32,000 nucleotides of DNA from Candidatus Baldrarchaeota archaeon (GCA_016840485.1 JAEOSG010000007.1:885-32884), one strand, 5' to 3'. Shown: positions 6,796-28,888, counted from the first letter of the stretch. Notes: a model not told the origin generated them from the letters alone. Numbers and translations: made by a program.

Positions 6796-7203
6796 ATGCC
6801 GAAGAAATTTACATACAGAGGATATACCCTAGAAGAACTACAAAAAATGTCAATGGACCAGTTTATCAACCTACTGCCAGCAAGACAACGCCGGTCTCTA
6901 TTACGCGGCTTAACACCACAACAAAGAATCCTACTAGAAAAAATAAGAAAGGTTAAACGTCTACAACAAAAAACCAAAAAGAAAATAGTAATACGGACGC
7001 ATGTCAGAGACATGATTATATTACCAGAGATGGTAGGATTAACAATAGCCGTTTACAATGGAAAGGAATTTATTCCGGTAGAAATAAAACCGGAAATGAT
7101 TGGCCATTTCCTAGGAGAATTTTCACCAACATGTGCACGCGTTGAACACGGAGCACCAGGAATAGGAGCCACACGATCCTCTATGTATGTTCCACTGAAG
7201 TAA
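6796..7203 (+). CDS. rps19: Ribosomal protein uS19 (S19p/S15e)
   Basis: 135 aa. [13 protein letters not shown]...[13 protein letters not shown]...[37 protein letters not shown] is a hallmark uS19 sequence. Confidence 0.95.
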
Positions 7204-7247
7204 ACCAATAATTAACTAAAACTACAAAACTATAATTTTGCCTACTA

Positions 7248-7613
7248 TTATTCTTCTACCAGGAAACCGTGTTCTTTCAATCGTTGATACATTTTTCTAA
7301 AACCATCGCAGTTTTTCCAATCTGCTTTATATACGCATTCCCGACAGACCTTTTGGATGCTGTTCATTCTATACAGCCCGAAAATGCTATTTATTGCGCC
7401 ATAAACATTTAGAAAAAGGAAAACTCTCAAAATGATGTGAACTTTTAGAGTAAAAATTCCAATAAATATGAAACCAAGTCCCGCTGCTAAACCTATTTTT
7501 GCTAATATTCTCAAGAATGTAACTTGCCTTGTTTTACATAATATATTAACGATATTTATAGAGATCAGAGTTATACCAATTAACATGTATGTCTTAGATG
7601 ATAAATTGATCAA
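7248..7613 (-). CDS. Hypothetical small membrane protein with a cytoplasmic Cys-containing tail
   Basis: 121 aa with a TTG start; an internal ATG at codon 10 is an alternative. It has three or four hydrophobic segments and then ...CRECVYKADWKNCDGFRKMY. I do not recognise the family. Confidence 0.4.
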   Translation of the reverse strand: MINLSSKTYMLIGITLISINIVNILCKTRQVTFLRILAKIGLAAGLGFIFIGIFTLKVHIILRVFLFLNVYGAINSIFGLYRMNSIQKVCRECVYKADWKNCDGFRKMYQRLKEHGFLVEE

Positions 7614-7863
7614 GAAAAATGAAGAAAATAGTAATACCGTAGTCAGGAATGTTGGAATGCCGAGTAAGCACCCCTTACATAATTTAATATTTCCAAAGAC
7701 GAAATAGTGACCCTTAAAGTACTTGCAATCGGGATGATGCGAGAGAAGGAAAGGTTCTAAGTCCTTACAGAAAGTGTATAAATGTCTGAAAATTCTCCTA
7801 AACTTTAACTTCAGAAAATGTCGCCCCCTAAACAGACAATAAATAAAAGTAAAAATGGGTGTG

Positions 7864-8211
7864 TTAAATGCCGCCGCCCATAAATGGTATGCCCCATCCT
7901 ATGAACAAAGCCACACCGAGAGCAATTACTAGAGGTATTAATCCTGCAAGTAACCAAGCGAGAATTGCTTGCCCCCATCCAACTTCATGTCTTGTCTTTA
8001 TAAAGTACCATTGTAAAATACACCCAAGACATGGTATTACGCTGACAATTGCCATAAGAAGCACTGTAACAAACACCCTGCCAAAATCTGTCACTGGAGC
8101 ACCTACCACCTTTAATCCTATCAATAGAAAAACGGAGCCTATCAACAATGTTAATATGAAAACTAGTATAATTAACCCTATTAGTCCACCTAGTGCCAAC
8201 ATTTGAAACAT
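7864..8211 (-). CDS. Hypothetical small integral membrane protein
   Basis: 115 aa, almost entirely hydrophobic helices (LALGGLIGLIILVFILTLLIGSVFLLIGL...). I prefer it over the mirror ORF 7868..8206(+), which is low-complexity and Pro/Asn-rich. Confidence 0.4.
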   Translation of the reverse strand: MFQMLALGGLIGLIILVFILTLLIGSVFLLIGLKVVGAPVTDFGRVFVTVLLMAIVSVIPCLGCILQWYFIKTRHEVGWGQAILAWLLAGLIPLVIALGVALFIGWGIPFMGGGI

Positions 8212-8358
8212 TTCCTATACCTCCAACTTAATATTCTCTATTTATTCAGAGAAACTTGTATAAAAACTTGTGTAGTTATTGTAATATCAGTATACAAATT
8301 CTAAAGTGGAAAAAGTAGAATAGATAGTCGTACTTTAACCCTTTTCAGGGGCGTGATT

Positions 8359-9471
8359 TTATTTAATTTTTTCTATTATTGCCGAAAGTCTTTGCAATAT
8401 TCTTTGTTTTGTTCCTTTTCTCTCGAGTTCTTTTTTTAGTTTTTCTATAAGTTCTATTTTTAACGGATCTACACCCCTCAGAAAGGCGAGATATAGCGTC
8501 GCCATGTCTCCTATAAACATTGTCGAAAACATGTTTTCCAATGTGCTTTTCCCTCTGGCCCATACTTCTAAGATCCTCGTAACGCCTCTTTCTGAGAGCA
8601 GATTCTTTAATATTTCTATTCTTGTTTTTATTTCATCTCTTTCACCGCGATATCTAAGGAATATAACAGAAAACATGTTAGGCGCCATGTGTTTCCATCC
8701 CATTATTTCGTTATGGTTCATTTCAGGTATTACGCCATAGAACGCATGAACCTTGCTGTTCTCATTTAATTGACACTTCATTCTATAGGCTATTGGGTTT
8801 TGAATTCCTGAACCATAAATTATAGGTATGGTATTCAATATCTGAACTGCAATCTCCTTTGCGGGGTTTTCCTCTAACGGAACTTCAGGCTTAATCTGTT
8901 CACGGACTTGCTGTAAAACTTCAGCGGTTGATCTGATCTCCGTACTTAAATTTTCTATAATTTCCATTTTCTCAAGAAAGGATACTATTGGTATTGTTAA
9001 ATAAATTATTGCTTCCCTCGGTTGGTAATCACTTGGAATACGTATGAATGGTAATCTAGCCTTTTGACAATATTCTTCCAATTTTCCATCGCTTGTAACA
9101 GCCAATATCTGCGCTTTTCTTTCAAGAGCTTGTAAAAATACGCTTAATGTCTCCTCCGTATTTCCAGAATAGCTAGCTAAAATTACAAGAGCATTTTTGT
9201 CAACATAATTTGGCAATGTATAATCCTTTACCGAAATAATTGGTATTTTTATCTTATCTTGAAGCCACGTAGCCACGATGTCCCCACTAATTCCAGAACC
9301 ACCCATGCCGGCTATAACTATGGTTTGAGGTGGAGTGACCACTTCTGGTAGGTTTATTGGTTCTAACTTGTAAGCTTGTAAACATGCTTCAGGATAACTC
9401 AAAACGTTTGAAATCGCATGAGACTTATCTAACTTATATAAAATATCTACGTTGTCTAAATCTATTTTCAT
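8359..9471 (-). CDS. SIS-domain sugar isomerase, probably a bifunctional phosphoglucose/phosphomannose isomerase
   Basis: 370 aa. It has the SIS motifs IAGMGGSGISGDI and LASYSGNTEETL, and a C-terminal half typical of archaeal PGI/PMI. Confidence 0.65.
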   Translation of the reverse strand: MKIDLDNVDILYKLDKSHAISNVLSYPEACLQAYKLEPINLPEVVTPPQTIVIAGMGGSGISGDIVATWLQDKIKIPIISVKDYTLPNYVDKNALVILASYSGNTEETLSVFLQALERKAQILAVTSDGKLEEYCQKARLPFIRIPSDYQPREAIIYLTIPIVSFLEKMEIIENLSTEIRSTAEVLQQVREQIKPEVPLEENPAKEIAVQILNTIPIIYGSGIQNPIAYRMKCQLNENSKVHAFYGVIPEMNHNEIMGWKHMAPNMFSVIFLRYRGERDEIKTRIEILKNLLSERGVTRILEVWARGKSTLENMFSTMFIGDMATLYLAFLRGVDPLKIELIEKLKKELERKGTKQRILQRLSAIIEKIK

Positions 9472-9543
9472 GTTGCAACACCTTTTTGAATGAATTAATT
9501 ACAAATTATTTCCCATACGCACGATAGGAACTCAATTTGACGA

Positions 9544-9840
9544 TTACCATTTTTTTCTCGGTATTTTTTTAATCCTGTCCTGAGGTCTTCCAACTAGAAC
9601 TTTACCATCTACTTTAACCGTTATTCCATCTGGAAGGAAAATGTAAAAGATACATATAGCCTTTGGTATTCTTTTAATTTTTCCATTTTTCGATAGAAAA
9701 AGTAAAGTTTTTTGTGTCTCATCTACTATTTTTCCTTCAACATTTATAAATGTGGGATCTTTACTTTCAACAACTCTTGCGAAAAGTCCGATCAATTCAT
9801 GCTGAATAATATTTTCTGGAGTAATTTTCATAGAAAACAC
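9544..9840 (-). CDS. rnp1: RNase P protein component 1 (Rpp29/Pop4 homologue)
   Basis: 98 aa. HELIGL.ARVV.S.DP..I...G.IVDET.KTL.........K.IPK..C.F...LPDG..V.VDG..L.GRP.DR matches Rpp29. It occupies the usual position after uL29. The true start may be the ATG at 9831. Confidence 0.8.
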   Translation of the reverse strand: MFSMKITPENIIQHELIGLFARVVESKDPTFINVEGKIVDETQKTLLFLSKNGKIKRIPKAICIFYIFLPDGITVKVDGKVLVGRPQDRIKKIPRKKW

Positions 9841-9842
9841 GG

Positions 9843-10043
9843 TTACTTTTCTTCTTCTTTCATTATAGTTATTAATCTAGCTATTGTTCTTTTTATTTCC
9901 CTTATACGTCCTGGGTTCTCTATTGCGCCACCCATGGCTTTCATTGCCATAAGACGCATCAACTCGGTCTTTAATTCTTCTAATCGTTTCCTACGTTGGT
10001 CAGGAGGCATTTTTCTTATTTCACTTGCCCTTAAAATTGCCAT
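9843..10043 (-). CDS. rpl29: Ribosomal protein uL29
   Basis: 66 aa. MAILRASEIRKM..DQRRKRLEELKTELMRL....AMGG.IENPGRIREIKRTIARL. Confidence 0.9.
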   Translation of the reverse strand: MAILRASEIRKMPPDQRRKRLEELKTELMRLMAMKAMGGAIENPGRIREIKRTIARLITIMKEEEK

Positions 10044-10681
10044 TACGATTCCTCCTCAACACCTTCCTCTTCCTTAATTTCGATTTCTTTCTCTTTTATT
10101 TTTATGTGGTCGGGTAGTTCCGCATCTGGACGCATAATTTTCACGTGTATTCCCATAACTCCAGGTTTCAATAGCACGTGTGTTACTGCTTCATCAACAA
10201 ACTTTTCCGCTGGTTCACCGGTCTTTGCTATGTACCCAGCTGTAAATTTTCTATATTTTGCCCTTTGGCTTACCAGTTTTCCTCTTATAATAATTTCTGC
10301 ACCTCTAGCACCCGCTTCCATTATTCTTCGCAATGCAAAGTAGGCCGCTCTTCTGAAGTGTACCCCTCTCTGAAGTGCTGCCGCTATTCTTGCTGCTACA
10401 ACTTTTGCACTCAGATCTGGATCCTCTACTTCCTCTACTTCAATCTGCGGATTTTCTATTCCAAACCTTTCCTCTAAGATCTGTGTAAGTTCTCTTATGT
10501 TATGTCCTCCTCTTCCAATTATAAGTCCTGGTCGTGCTGCGTAAATTACGACCCTGGTTCTTATTGGAGTTTTAAATAATTCTACACCAGCGTATCCTGC
10601 TCTTTTCAACTCTTTCTCGAGGAATTCGTCAATTGCTGCTCTTTTTAACCCTTCTTGGATAAATACGTTTTTTAGAGGCAA
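10043..10681 (-). CDS. rps3: Ribosomal protein uS3
   Basis: 212 aa. It has a KH domain (PGLIIGRGGHNIRELT) and RGAEIIIRGKL...RAK...F..GY. The tail is acidic. Confidence 0.95.
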   Translation of the reverse strand: MPLKNVFIQEGLKRAAIDEFLEKELKRAGYAGVELFKTPIRTRVVIYAARPGLIIGRGGHNIRELTQILEERFGIENPQIEVEEVEDPDLSAKVVAARIAAALQRGVHFRRAAYFALRRIMEAGARGAEIIIRGKLVSQRAKYRKFTAGYIAKTGEPAEKFVDEAVTHVLLKPGVMGIHVKIMRPDAELPDHIKIKEKEIEIKEEEGVEEES

Positions 10682-10687
10682 TTCATG

Positions 10688-11176
10688 TCACCCCAGAAGT
10701 TCTTCAACAATAATTTCAACGTGGGTGAGCTGTTGAAACTTTGGAGTTGAACGACCAAAAGCTCTCGGAATATATCTCTTAATTTTTGGCCCCATTTGGG
10801 CTGCTGCGTGAATTATTTTACATCTTTCCGTATCTAACCCTTTATAATCGGCATTGTTTTCCACGTTTCTTAGGACTTCAAGGATTTCTTTCGCTGCTTT
10901 AACTGGGTATCTCCCTGACGGCCACTTTTGTAATTGTCTTCTGTGTCCAATCTCCTTTTTATATCTTTTAAATGGAACTGGCCTTTTTAGCGCTATTACA
11001 TCCTCTAGGTATTCCATTGCATCTTTAAGCATCATTCCTTTTATTGTATGACATATTTCCCTAGCTGCCTTCAATGATATACGCAAATCCCTTCCTGAAG
11101 CTTTTGCTGTCCTGTCTGGGTCTAGGTCTTTGATCGAATACTCCCATGTTGGCACAGTGAACACCACCTCTACCAT
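10688..11176 (-). CDS. rpl22: Ribosomal protein uL22
   Basis: 162 aa. AKASGRDLRISLKAAREICHTIKGM...A..YLEDVI....PVPF.RY...GHR is typical archaeal L22. Confidence 0.9.
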   Translation of the reverse strand: MVEVVFTVPTWEYSIKDLDPDRTAKASGRDLRISLKAAREICHTIKGMMLKDAMEYLEDVIALKRPVPFKRYKKEIGHRRQLQKWPSGRYPVKAAKEILEVLRNVENNADYKGLDTERCKIIHAAAQMGPKIKRYIPRAFGRSTPKFQQLTHVEIIVEELLG

Positions 11177-11725
11177 TAGAGTTTCCCTTTTAAATACTTC
11201 TATAGCTCCGATTCCCGGAGGCTCATCTGATTAAACCAGTACAGGGTAATACTACTTTTACTTACAGAGTCTTTAAATTTTTAACTAAAGTTTGTCACTT
11301 TTACCTTACAAATATAATAGTTACGGTACCATAACTCTGTCACACGGCTGTCACATGAATCTAAGGTATTTATTTTAAAATTTTAAGAAGTTTGATAATT
11401 AGGAATCTGTTTAATGATTTCTGATTAAAGGATATATCATCTATCCGAATAAACCAAAAATAAACCCTTTTTTATTTATTTCTCAAAGTAACTCGTTAAT
11501 ATGGAAACTTATGCTTTAATTTCGAGTATTTTTTAATAAGACCTTCTTAAACTATATCGTACTAACCCTGTCTAGTCAGGTATTTTTAGGTAAACTTTTT
11601 TAAGTCATTTATTTTTGTGATGGTTACGCAAATATACCTATTCAAGGGTGAGTGAACCCTTATCCCTTAGACACGAAAAAGTTAAAAACAATTTTATTAA
11701 CCATGTTTCAAACCACCCTTCAACG

Positions 11726-11735
11726 TTAATAATAA
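11726..11735 (+). promoter_or_regulatory. Candidate TATA-like element (TTAATAATAA) upstream of the uS17...SecY operon
   Basis: It lies about 45-50 nt before the ATG at 11779. A GGAGGT Shine-Dalgarno sits at 11765-11770. Motif spotting in a very AT-rich spacer, so weak. Confidence 0.25.
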
Positions 11736-11778
11736 TTCAAATGCGAATCGTTTGTAAATAAATTGGAGGTTCTTTAAG

Positions 11779-12105
11779 ATGACTAGAAACATAGGGCTAG
11801 ACGTTACTCCGCCTAAGTCAGAGTGTGATGACCCAAATTGCCCATTTCACGGTACTTTACCCGTTAGAGGAAGAATATTTGAAGGCATAGTTGTCAGTGA
11901 TAAAATGAATAGAACGGTCGTCGTAAGAAGAGATTATCTATGGTATGTTAAAAAATATATGAGATATGAAAAAAGAAAATCCCTTATTCACGCCCACAAT
12001 CCTCCGTGTATTGACGCTAAAATTGGAGATAGAGTAAAAATAGCGGAGTGCCGTCCCCTTAGCAAAACGGTAAGTTTCGTTGTTATAGAAAAATTAAGCA
12101 AATAG
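11779..12105 (+). CDS. rps17: Ribosomal protein uS17
   Basis: 108 aa. [40 protein letters not shown]...[21 protein letters not shown]. Confidence 0.95.
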
Positions 12106-23613: not shown

Positions 23614-23752
23614 GTATTTAACCAAAATTCCGTTATCTATTTTAAATTAATGGTATAATTAGATTGTGCATTGCCTTTAAATACGCAAATAATGTTATAA
23701 TACCCAGAAACTTTAAACAGAGATAATTGTAGGTGCCGGGGTAGCCAAGTGG

Positions 23753-23771
23753 ACTACAGGCTTTATGCCGG
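23753..23771 (+). other. Non-canonical tRNA intron in the D-loop of tRNA-Ser; boundaries ambiguous
   Basis: Removing ACTACAGGCTTTATGCCGG yields the widespread Ser D-arm AGTGGTTA; because of flanking GG repeats the register may shift by 1-2 nt. An alternative 18-nt intron at 23758-23775 is supported by a partial BHB:
- Helix G23752.U73, A53-U72, C54-G71, U55.G70.
- Bulge A56 C57 A58.
- Inner helix G59-C69, G60-C68, C61-G67. Confidence 0.45.
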
Positions 23772-23790
23772 TTAGGGCGCGGGCCTGGAG

Positions 23791-23810
23791 TTTCAAGTAA
23801 GCCACGAGAT
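23791..23810 (+). other. Canonical-position (37/38) tRNA intron of tRNA-Ser(GGA), 20 nt
   Basis: The mature loop is CUGGAG|A. The expected bulges, A89 G90|U91 and A09 U10|A11, flank a 4-position central helix: C23785-G23808, U86-A07, G87xG06 (mismatch), G88-C05. The BHB is therefore imperfect. Confidence 0.6.
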
Positions 23811-24044
23811 AGCCCGTGGCCCTTACGGGCCGCGTGGGTTCGAATCCCACCCCCGGCGCCATAATAATTTAAAAGATTAATGCCTTTTGTCCACCTCTCA
23901 AATTAGTCGAGATGTTTATATCGTTTTTGGGACTTTAGAAATAGGTTACTTTGAACATTTGCTTAACTTAAGATTCAAAAAGGAATGCGGTTGTTTTCGG
24001 CTAGTTTATAATGAAACAGAGAGTTTGGTTAAAGAGGGGATGGA

Positions 24045-24553
24045 ATGCGAAAGGTGTTTTCAGCAGTATTCCTAATGTGCATGGTTGCACTTTTGTTCCC
24101 GCTACCAGCTTCAACGCATATAACTACGCATATACCCGTGTCAGGCGTCTTTGACTATACCTTTACTATCATATATGATAGAGTTATCGGTGACAAAATA
24201 CTCATATTCGCAACGGAAGATGAACTCTGGCAAGGAAGCTTTTCTGGAACCGCAGAAGCTGTTTTCATAGTGATTATATTTCCCCAGATCTTTGGAAGGT
24301 ATAGCTTCGAACCACCTTTACCGGTACGGTGGATGGCAAATGTGGTACTATGGTTATTCACTTAATTGGTGAGAGAACATATTGGGACGAGGACACCTTT
24401 TGGTGGTATGGTCACTGGAGGATCATAAGCGGTACAGGCGAATTGAGGAACATTCACGGGCAAGGAACTTGGTGGGGACCAGGATACGAAGGACCAGATG
24501 TACCAGGCGACAGACCCGATATCTACTATGAGGGAGAGATATACTTCAACTAG
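24045..24553 (+). pseudogene. Secreted hypothetical beta-rich protein gene disrupted by a single -1 frame change (pseudogene or sequencing error)
   Basis: ORF 24045..24365 (signal peptide MRKVFSAVFLMCMVALLFPLPAS..., then ...WQGSFSGTAEAVF...GRYSFE) and ORF 24329..24553 overlap in different frames. The second frame is already open from 24305 and reads LRTTFTGTVDGKCGTMVIHLIGE...ISGTGELRNIHGQGTWWG. That continues the first ORF as one ~170-aa protein if 1 nt is restored near 24305-24315. Confidence 0.6.
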
Positions 24554-25417: not shown

Positions 25418-25975
25418 ATGGGGGATCCGAAAAAACAAAGAAAGAAGTATATTCCTCCAAGACATCCATGGCAAAAAGAACGTTTAGAGAGGGAAATAGT
25501 AGTAGTTGGTAAATACGGTTTAAGAAATAAAAGAGAATTATGGATACATCAAACACAATTAAGAAAATATAGGCATAGGGCACGTGAAATACTTGCATTA
25601 CCACCAGATATTAGAGAAAAACACGAGAAAGAATTGATTAATAAACTTTATAAAATGGGGATTCTTCATGAAGATGCAACCCTTGACGATGTTCTAAGTT
25701 TAACCGTCGAAGATATATTAGAAAGAAGACTACAAACAATTGTTTATAGGAAAGGACTGGCAAAGAGTATTTATCATGCTCGACAACTCATCACTCACGG
25801 ACATATTGCCATAAATGGTCGAAGAGTAACCGTTCCATCCTATATGGTTAGTAGAGATGAGGAAGATCTGATTACGTATTTCCCTACATCACCGTATAAT
25901 GATCCTAAACACCCAGAAAGACCTCAAGCCACACCGGAAACACCATCTGTAGAGGAGGCTGCTCAAAGTGAGTAA
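25418..25975 (+). CDS. rps4: Ribosomal protein uS4
   Basis: 185 aa. [20 protein letters not shown]....[12 protein letters not shown]........KYR..AR..LA... and the S4 domain [39 protein letters not shown]. Confidence 0.95.
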
Positions 25976-28472: not shown

Positions 28473-28644
28473 CCATCTTTATTGAAACATTTCCTGTCCA
28501 TTTGTTGCCTTTCTTGATACAAACTCAAAATTAAAGTTTTGTAATGGTTTGTTGAATAATTACTCTTGGAATCCGTATAAGCAGGGAGGTGTCAGATAAA
28601 GCTGATAATCACTCTACCTAAATATCTGAAAGAGGTGTATTTAT

Positions 28645-28888
28645 GTGATAATTCCGGTCCGATACTGACATTGCACTCAAGTTTTTGAGTGCAATGTCGG
28701 CGGAAAGCTTTACTTGTGGAAAATTAATTGGTGATAAATGGGAAGAATTTGCAAGACGTGTAAGGCAAGGTGAGGATCCAAAACAAGTGCTGGACGATCT
28801 AGGTATTAAACGGTATTGTTGTAGAAGAATGTTTCTTAGCCATGTGGATCTGATAGATGAGATCTTAGATTTTAGTCTACCAACATAA
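28645..28888 (+). CDS. rpoN: DNA-directed RNA polymerase subunit N (Rpo10), a split gene: exon 1 28645..28663, exon 2 28707..28888
   Basis: Exon 1 is GTG ATA ATT CCG GTC CGA T, encoding MIIPVR plus the first base of the Cys codon; the GAGGTG Shine-Dalgarno is at 28632-37. Exon 2 begins GC TTT ACT TGT GGA AAA. Joined, they give [66 protein letters not shown] (66 aa). This matches canonical RpoN end to end, including Zn ligands C7, C10, C44 and C45. Left unspliced, exon 1 terminates at TGA 28666-68. Confidence 0.85.
28664..28706 (+). other. 43-nt bulge-helix-bulge (BHB) intron inside the rpoN coding sequence
   Basis: Sequence: ACTGACATTGCACTCAAGTTTTTGAGTGCAATGTCGGCGGAAA.
- Inner helix 28665-80 / 28685-700: C-G, U.G, then a perfect 14 bp, with a GUUU loop.
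- 5'-strand bulge A62 U63 A64.
- Central 4-bp helix U58 C59 C60 G61 : C01 G02 G03 A04.
- 3'-strand bulge A05 A06 G07.
- Outer helix G57-C08, G56.U09.
The length is not a multiple of 3, and the insertion contains an in-frame stop. Confidence 0.8.

Follow-up and report, generated by a model that had tools for sequence, protein, structure and literature searches.

Archaeal tRNA and rRNA genes carry introns of the bulge-helix-bulge (BHB) type, whose hBHBh' and relaxed HBh' motifs were reportedly laid out by Marck and Grosjean in 2003. The pre-mRNA of cbf5, which encodes a pseudouridine synthase, is also said to contain a BHB intron in Crenarchaeota, in accounts attributed to Watanabe in 2002 and Yoshinari in 2006. 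In eukaryotes, HAC1/XBP1 mRNA is spliced in the cytoplasm with no spliceosome, through cleavage by IRE1, which leaves 2',3'-cyclic phosphate ends, and ligation by Trl1 or RtcB. Experiments have shown BHB intron splicing for the cbf5 of Desulfurococcales and Sulfolobales (Yokobori 2009, PMC2738675), and a 2020 Haloferax study names cbf5 as the sole archaeal mRNA example then reported beside its own (PMC7714728). Archaeal coding-RNA splicing is thus extremely rare, with only cbf5 of some Crenarchaeota and one Haloferax 5' untranslated region (UTR) in the literature searched (PMC7714728, PMC2738675). Here we describe a 32,000-nucleotide (nt) stretch of DNA from a Candidatus Baldrarchaeota archaeon (GCA_016840485.1 JAEOSG010000007.1:885-32884; the window, with positions counted from its first letter), in which rpoN, the gene for RNA polymerase subunit Rpo10, is interrupted by a 43-nt insert. 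We put the probability that this insert is an intron of the archaeal BHB type, excised at the RNA level, at roughly 0.88.

The rpoN insert and its predicted RNA structure

The gene track gives an open reading frame (ORF) at 28685-28888 whose translation has serine (AGC) at the place of Cys7, and which aligns with the Pfam family RNA_pol_N (PF01194) only over profile positions 7 to 58 (97.2 bits). Further upstream, GTG ATA ATT CCG GTC CGA (28645-28662) encodes MIIPVR and is followed by TAC TGA in the unspliced frame. Excising 28664-28706 joins CGA-U to GC-UUU, which produces CGA UGC UUU ACU UGU..., restores R-C-F-T-C-G, and gives a 66-amino-acid (aa) protein with the predicted N-terminal peptide MIIPVRCFTCGK. 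This spliced protein covers the entire profile (1-58/58, 118.3 bits), solved Rpo10/Rpb10 chains in the PDB align with it from residue 1, and a full-length Rpo10 domain with zinc ligands C7, C10, C44, and C45 is present only after removal of the insert. The predicted mRNA junction is GGUCCGAU joined to GCUUUACU, which can also be written as ...CCGGUCCGAU joined to GCUUUACUUGUGG; that cleavage and ligation occur there in vivo is what we infer from the sequence. The parts of the gene and of its motif are as follows, with conservation counted over the 11 insert variants described below.

28632-28637, plus strand: Shine-Dalgarno (SD)-like GAGGTG, 7 nt upstream of the exon 1 GTG, by direct reading
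28645-28663, plus strand: rpoN (Rpo10) exon 1, GTG ATA ATT CCG GTC CGA U, encoding MIIPVR and the first base of the Cys7 codon
28664-28706, plus strand: predicted intron, 43 nt, phase 1, within the Cys7 codon, with an in-frame UGA at 28666-28668
28707-28888, plus strand: rpoN exon 2, opening with the GC of Cys7, with C-terminal end ...DFSLPT and stop codon TAA
28656-28657, plus strand: 5' strand of the outer helix, pairs G28657-C28708 and G28656.U28709
28658-28661, plus strand: 5' strand of the central helix, UCCG, exonic, partner 28701-28704, unchanged in 11 of 11 variants and predicted by RNAalifold
28662-28664, plus strand: 5' splice-site bulge A-U-A, predicted cut 28663/28664, unchanged in 11 of 11 variants
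28665-28680 with 28685-28700, plus strand: inner helix h', 16 bp, closed by the loop GUUU (28681-28684), 95.9% of cells paired
28701-28704, plus strand: 3' strand of the central helix, CGGA, intronic (CGGA in 10 variants, CGGG in 1)
28705-28707, plus strand: 3' splice-site bulge A-A-G, predicted cut 28706/28707, unchanged in 11 of 11 variants
28708-28709, plus strand: 3' strand of the outer helix, the C of Cys7 UGC and the U that opens the Phe codon

The 5' strand of this motif runs through outer helix, exonic central helix, bulge, and inner helix, and the 3' strand through inner helix, intronic central helix, bulge, and outer helix, which is the layout of a tRNA intron at position 37/38. A 4-bp central helix with two opposed 3-nt bulges, as in archaeal BHB introns, is joined by an inner helix h' beside the 5' bulge; this helix has 16 bp in the window (given as 14 Watson-Crick pairs, one U.G, and one C-G) and 9 to 16 bp in relatives. 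Central helix, 5' bulge, and h' are the parts of the relaxed HBh' form, and cleavage 3' of the second nucleotide in each bulge would lead to a functional joined RNA with the same junction in all 11 variants. The fold has a z-score of -4.96, with 0 of 200 shuffles folding equally well, and the 4-bp central helix, a 3-nt bulge, and the inner helix are all seen in the centroid fold. When both strands of the window were scanned for BHB motifs, rpoN ranked first, its 16-bp inner helix comparing with at most 11 bp in 20 shuffled windows, and in a blind scan combining BHB motifs with ORF repair it was the sole convincing case in the window.

An earlier note on this DNA had argued that the track ORF is missing the RpoN N-terminus and with it the first zinc-binding cysteine, that the N-terminus MIIPVR lies at 28645-28662 behind GAGGTG, and that cutting each bulge between its second and third nucleotides would rebuild R-C-F-T-C in a 66-aa protein. 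These coordinates proved correct, the helices and bulges it described are present base for base, and the BHB rule and the protein alignment do agree on the cut positions. Its caveat that a weak outer helix makes this a relaxed BHB was well placed, G28657-C28708 being the sole invariant outer pair, and the folding and scanning that it had named as a check returned the central helix, 5' bulge, and inner helix as predicted structure in the top motif of the window.

The remaining candidates from the scans were discarded. On both strands of the window, the inner helices of the other BHB and ORF-repair hits are 3 to 11 bp long, no more than chance gives, and the peptides at their junctions make no sense. 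Upstream of S28e, related loci repeatedly gave a BHB-like hit, which was rejected since exon 2 already has the natural N-terminus there; its recurrence is not independent evidence, because the loci are ~94% identical.

Insert variants and RpoN models in Baldrarchaeia

Ranking of relatives by an Rps2 probe placed Asgard metagenome-assembled genomes (MAGs) of the Baldrarchaeia type closest to the window. Rps2 identity was 100% in a MAG deposited as 'Odinarchaeota AUK032' (L001), 97% in L002, 90% in a 'Baldrarchaeota' MAG (L003), and 75% in Candidatus Baldrarchaeum yapensis (L004), followed by Hodarchaeota at 67%. Several Baldrarchaeia-type contigs share ~94% DNA identity with the window, and the NCBI label on matching RpoN proteins is 'Candidatus Baldrarchaeia archaeon'. 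With the spliced protein as the tblastn query, matches in L001 to L004 begin at residue 8 (FTCGK); in L005 and 17 further archaeal loci the match begins at residue 1 or 2 and continues uninterrupted through PVRCFTCG. Reading upstream in L001 to L004 brought out the same exon 1, an identical insert position, and a shared 3' junction, and an SD-like GAGGTG or GGTG also stands 5' of exon 1 in relatives.

The variant set was widened by a metagenome scan on the conserved flanks (32 matches, of which 25 were chance hits lacking rpoN and were filtered out) and by look-ups of mis-called public proteins. This yielded 11 distinct insert variants in more than 20 contigs from JGI, ENA, NCBI, and Logan, all at one common site and 31, 41, 42, or 43 nt long. 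Samples containing such contigs include JGI 3300017593 and 3300033156, ENA ERZ23499504, and SRR14000036. The insert lengths span all three frame relations, so the protein can be restored in all variants only if the insert is taken out of the RNA. The earlier note had left it to related loci whether the insertion is present, absent, or variable: it sits at the identical site in all Baldrarchaeia-type relatives, covaries, differs in length, and is absent from the other archaeal rpoN genes seen.

Conservation of the structure was evident from the alignment, in which 95.8% of cells are paired versus 35 to 42% when the partner columns are slid, and 0 of 500 shuffles match the observed value on any measure. 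Changes on both sides with pairing retained occur at 13 of the 16 inner-helix pairs, and in the CGGG variant a U-A pair of the central helix becomes U.G, again with pairing kept. RNAalifold, supplied with no structure, recovered the central helix, a 3-nt bulge, and the inner helix. Exon 1 keeps its coding in the 11 variants, with synonymous changes only (ATT/ATC, CCG/CCA/CCT). Over seven distinct exon haplotypes the codons of the BHB core are frozen (Val5 GTC, Arg6 CGA, Cys7 TGC) and adjacent codons vary (Ile3 ATT/ATC, Pro4 CCG/CCA/CCT, Thr9 ACT/ACC/ACA, Cys10 TGT/TGC), and rpoN genes without the intron use GTA/GTG/GTT/GTC, AGA/CGA/CGC/CGT, and TGT/TGC at the same three sites. As a separate observation, the 11 nt at the intron apex (equivalent to window 28678-28688) are exactly inverted between L001 (CCGATTGCTAG) and L114 (CTAGCAATCGG), an inversion that is structurally neutral, with the stem intact.

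Public protein models reflect the interruption. Six of the 120 nearest RpoN clusters in a protein database of 5.8 billion clusters lack the N-terminal Cys motif, and all six are Baldrarchaeia; the remaining 114 retain P[VIL]RC[FY][TS]CG. These six clusters (P0001 to P0006, 64 to 83 aa) have wrong N-termini without the first zinc-ligand Cys, starting either internally or from upstream GTG codons that read through the intron, so that starts and read-through peptides differ, and their NCBI name remains 'DNA-directed RNA polymerase subunit N'. The closest protein that is intact, P0008, is encoded by a different organism within its own rpoD-rps9-rps2 locus, where S2 identity is 70%. In L124 and L125, which are labelled Thermoprotei and whose S2 is 70% identical to that of the window, an intact rpoN at 2501-2728 is inverted relative to the flanking rps9 and rps2.

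A second predicted mRNA intron was found in aIF5B (IF-2), which in related loci lies ~6.4 kb downstream of rpoN, outside the window, and is called there as truncated or split.

L116 16468-16500: aIF5B intron
L114 16467-16499: aIF5B intron
L117 16499-16530: aIF5B intron
L004 6108-6137: aIF5B intron
L081 2119-2151, minus strand: aIF5B intron

This insert of 30 to 33 nt contains an in-frame stop and falls within the GTPase motif, between GGI and TQHIGA. Its minimum free energy (MFE) fold is a strict hBHBh' in which GCUGGG:CCCAGC forms an outer helix of 6 bp and GGCA:UGCC a central helix of 4 bp, with two 3-nt bulges and an inner helix of 9 to 11 bp. Canonical cuts give GGC AUA / ACC CAG (G-I-T-Q) and restore GGITQHIGA, with the predicted spliced junction GGCAUA joined to ACCCAGCAU. 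Five variants, including that of B. yapensis, share the site and differ in the inner helix, with lengths of 30, 32, and 33 nt. The blind BHB and ORF-repair scan recovered rpoN in 8 of 8 Baldrarchaeia loci and aIF5B in all seven loci that reach this gene. A strict intron recovered blindly in a second gene independently supports BHB-pathway splicing of mRNA in this lineage.

Competing explanations and points against splicing

An rpoN expressed unspliced, from a start inside the insert (TTG 28685 or ATG 28694), would yield an Rpo10 beginning MSAMSAESF... with three zinc-ligand cysteines; the upstream MIIPVR would then be left over or serve as a leader peptide, and the hairpin would have a regulatory function. 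Gene callers do yield such ORFs, and the truncated one scores 97 bits against RNA_pol_N, but the starts are not conserved, as the six public models differ in both start and read-through peptide. Exon 1 also holds the canonical MIIPVR with its own SD and only synonymous changes, the cysteine motif is retained in the 114 other clusters, and internal initiation leaves unexplained both the invariant bulges and central helix and a Cys codon that is rebuilt in 11 of 11 variants. We therefore regard it as very improbable. Ribosomal recoding, through a programmed frameshift or a hairpin bypass as in phage T4 gene 60, is barely conceivable and was rejected. The UGA at 28666-28668 directly after the break and the stable hairpin behind it have a superficial likeness to a bypass site, but insert lengths in three frame relations mean that no fixed frameshift works, matched take-off and landing codons are absent (no codon pair is repeated, and CGA does not recur in frame at the 3' end), and the Cys7 codon, split between U28663 and G28707-C28708, could not be built by a ribosome hop.

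MAG sequence can hold errors, and a frameshifted DUF3224-like gene lies near rpoN in the window, both of which would suit a pseudogene in decay, or an error of assembly or sequencing, if a functional rpoN stood elsewhere in the genome. The earlier note had itself named an artefact and a second intact copy as ways in which its proposal could fail. Assembly artefact is excluded: independent JGI, ENA, NCBI, and Logan assemblies all carry the insert, the more than 20 contigs coming from differing samples and assemblers. No intact Baldrarchaeia-type RpoN appeared among the 120 nearest of the 5.8 billion clusters, the nearest intact protein being from another lineage; this search covered protein clusters, a scope that leaves some weight with a hidden second copy. 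Against gene decay, the interruption is shared by lineages with Rps2 identity as low as 75%, purifying selection acts on both exons, the insert covaries, and the syntenic place between rps9 and rps2 is kept. Decay or artefact is thus extremely improbable as an account of the locus.

Several observations nevertheless weigh against an rpoN intron of the BHB type. Its outer exon-exon helix has just 1 to 2 bp, so that the 3' bulge is poorly closed: G28657-C28708 alone is invariant, and at the second pair (28656-28709) 8 of the 11 variants have G.U or A-U and the other 3 have U/U. RNAalifold did not include the outer helix in its prediction, and the strict hBHBh' form, with an outer helix of at least 2 to 3 bp closing the 3' bulge, is not present in rpoN. 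Because only a single outer pair is invariant and RNAalifold omits that helix, the motif is assigned to the relaxed HBh' form only. No element that would keep both exons together after cleavage is evident. In the window and in 2 of 6 other variants folded, the MFE fold takes an alternative register, in which UUCCG (or UCCG) or CCCGG pairs with CGGAA or CGGGA and replaces the central helix. Finally, neither an EndA nor an RtcB gene lies within the window.

Other features of the window were recorded as well. The rpoN gene belongs to a classic archaeal cluster with the order rps13-rps4-rps11-rpoD-rpl18e-rpl13-rps9-rpoN-rps2, followed by mevalonate kinase and isopentenyl-phosphate kinase. The DUF3224-like gene (24045-24553, plus strand) was considered as a BHB intron host and rejected, as it shows a simple frameshift relative to L117: two ORFs overlap (24045-24365 and 24329-24553), the frameshift lies near 24293-24305, and the intact homologue (L117 5221-5715) has 164 aa. 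A pseudogene or an error in sequencing may explain the break. At the S13/S4 junction, a hit on the minus strand (25421-25461) is a hairpin of 11 bp whose flanks look BHB-like; it is kept in close relatives and is probably an ordinary intergenic or 5'-coding hairpin, its helix being within chance range and no ORF being repaired. The S10/spc order is rearranged at 6796-12105, where the minus strand encodes L22, S3, and RNase P p29 (11176 down to 9544), the plus strand encodes S17 and later genes from 11779, beyond a 600-nt AT-rich divergent gap, and S19 stands alone at 6796-7203 (plus strand).

Proposed splicing pathway and comparison with known systems

In the proposed pathway, exonic UCCG (28658-28661) would pair with intronic CGGA (28701-28704) in the pre-mRNA, the 16-bp hairpin of the intron would stack against one side of the central helix, and one 3-nt bulge on each strand would display the scissile bonds. 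The tRNA-splicing endonuclease (EndA) would cleave 3' of U28663 and of A28706, and an RtcB-type ligase would seal the exons into ...CGA UGC UUU ACU UGU..., from which a normal 66-aa Rpo10 with a CX2C...CC zinc site would be translated. Unspliced mRNA gives only the heptapeptide MIIPVRY, and polymerase assembly would therefore depend on the tRNA-splicing machinery. EndA and RtcB are the presumed enzymes, and any regulatory role for rpoN splicing is equally presumptive. The excised intron would probably become a circle, and splicing would have to compete with ribosomes loading just 19 nt upstream.

Published enzyme types are compatible with such a substrate. The relaxed HBh' motif is accepted by broad-specificity (alpha-beta)2 and epsilon2 endonucleases, and Asgard EndA is reported to be an (alpha-beta)2 enzyme with an L1 (crenarchaeal) loop, which is associated with relaxed-motif cleavage (PMC5829648). 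The same enzyme class has also been connected with the intron of crenarchaeal cbf5 mRNA (PMC2738675). Within the window, a 124-nt tRNA gene (23735-23858, plus strand; Rfam tRNA, 39.3 bits) has a long variable arm and insertions of ~20 nt in both the D-loop and the anticodon loop. ARAGORN misses this gene by default and in intron mode calls Leu(GAG) with one 41-nt intron, and a simple scanner calls Ser-GGA with two introns; the simplest reading is a tRNA-Ser(GGA) in which one of two introns occupies a non-canonical position. With two insertions in a tRNA gene, the cell cannot do without a ligase and a splicing endonuclease, the latter probably one that handles non-canonical positions.

A Baldrarchaeia cell probably must cut and rejoin rpoN mRNA to make Rpo10, and if the introns are spliced as proposed, both transcription and translation initiation in these organisms would rely on the tRNA-splicing machinery. 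rpoN would be the second and aIF5B the third example in coding sequence, the former in an essential RNA polymerase subunit, in Asgard, class-wide, and with clear covariation. No report linking rpoN, Rpo10, aIF5B, Baldrarchaeota, or Asgard with a BHB or intron was found in the open-access literature, which is consistent with the novelty that the earlier note had claimed for rpoN, and a report in a subscription journal is possible. Should splicing be confirmed, the wrong N-termini of the six public Baldrarchaeia RpoN models would affect phylogenomic marker sets and completeness estimates, and because a blind scan recovered both introns, archaeal mRNA introns in MAGs may be undercounted. The relaxed rpoN and strict aIF5B motifs would then form an experimentally tractable substrate pair for study of Asgard EndA and RtcB on mRNAs. 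A doubtful extension is that rpoN and aIF5B, perhaps with more genes, carry a lineage-wide, obligatory, non-neutral set of tRNA-type introns in core information-processing mRNAs, which would couple polymerase and initiation-factor output to EndA/RtcB capacity; if true, such a set would be an archaeal counterpart of HAC1/XBP1 regulated splicing in the prokaryotes closest to eukaryotes.

Compared with known systems, the rpoN intron most resembles that of cbf5. Both are short introns in coding sequence with an often relaxed BHB, both are mis-annotated by gene callers as split or frameshifted genes, and both hosts have a hetero-oligomeric, broad-specificity splicing endonuclease (the Asgard enzyme type being taken from the literature). 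Each intron is confined to one lineage, which implies a single gain. The host gene is different (rpoN, with aIF5B as a second), as is the phylum (Asgard, Baldrarchaeia, rather than Crenarchaeota), and cbf5 itself is uninterrupted in the window. Unlike the cbf5 intron, that of rpoN comes only 19 nt after the start of the ORF and interrupts a codon for a zinc ligand, and splicing has been shown experimentally for cbf5, whereas for rpoN it is deduced from sequence. The HVO_1309 mRNA of Haloferax volcanii (Schwarz et al. 2020, PMC7714728) is likewise an EndA mRNA substrate outside tRNA and rRNA, but its intron is in the 5' UTR, so that the protein needs no splicing, and its host is a euryarchaeon with a homodimeric EndA.

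With tRNA and rRNA introns, the rpoN insert shares the 4-bp central helix, the opposed 3-nt bulges, and the cuts after the second bulge nucleotide, and, as in tRNA introns at 37/38, the 5' exon and the 3' part of the intron form the central helix. In tRNA the exons are held by the tRNA body, whereas rpoN has no such body, and its outer helix is almost absent, against the 6 bp of this lineage's aIF5B intron. HAC1/XBP1 is alike in that a coding mRNA is spliced by an endonuclease and a tRNA ligase, as proposed for rpoN, but the nuclease is IRE1, the motif has two stem-loops, and splicing is a regulated stress switch, regulation for which rpoN offers no evidence. In phage T4 gene 60, too, an ORF is broken by a short non-coding gap that opens with a stop codon and a hairpin; the bypass there uses matched take-off and landing codons on an intact mRNA, whereas rpoN has no such codons and its Cys codon is split. 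We file the rpoN intron as a known kind, a BHB intron in coding RNA, in a relaxed form and in a new host gene and phylum; it brings no new mechanism.

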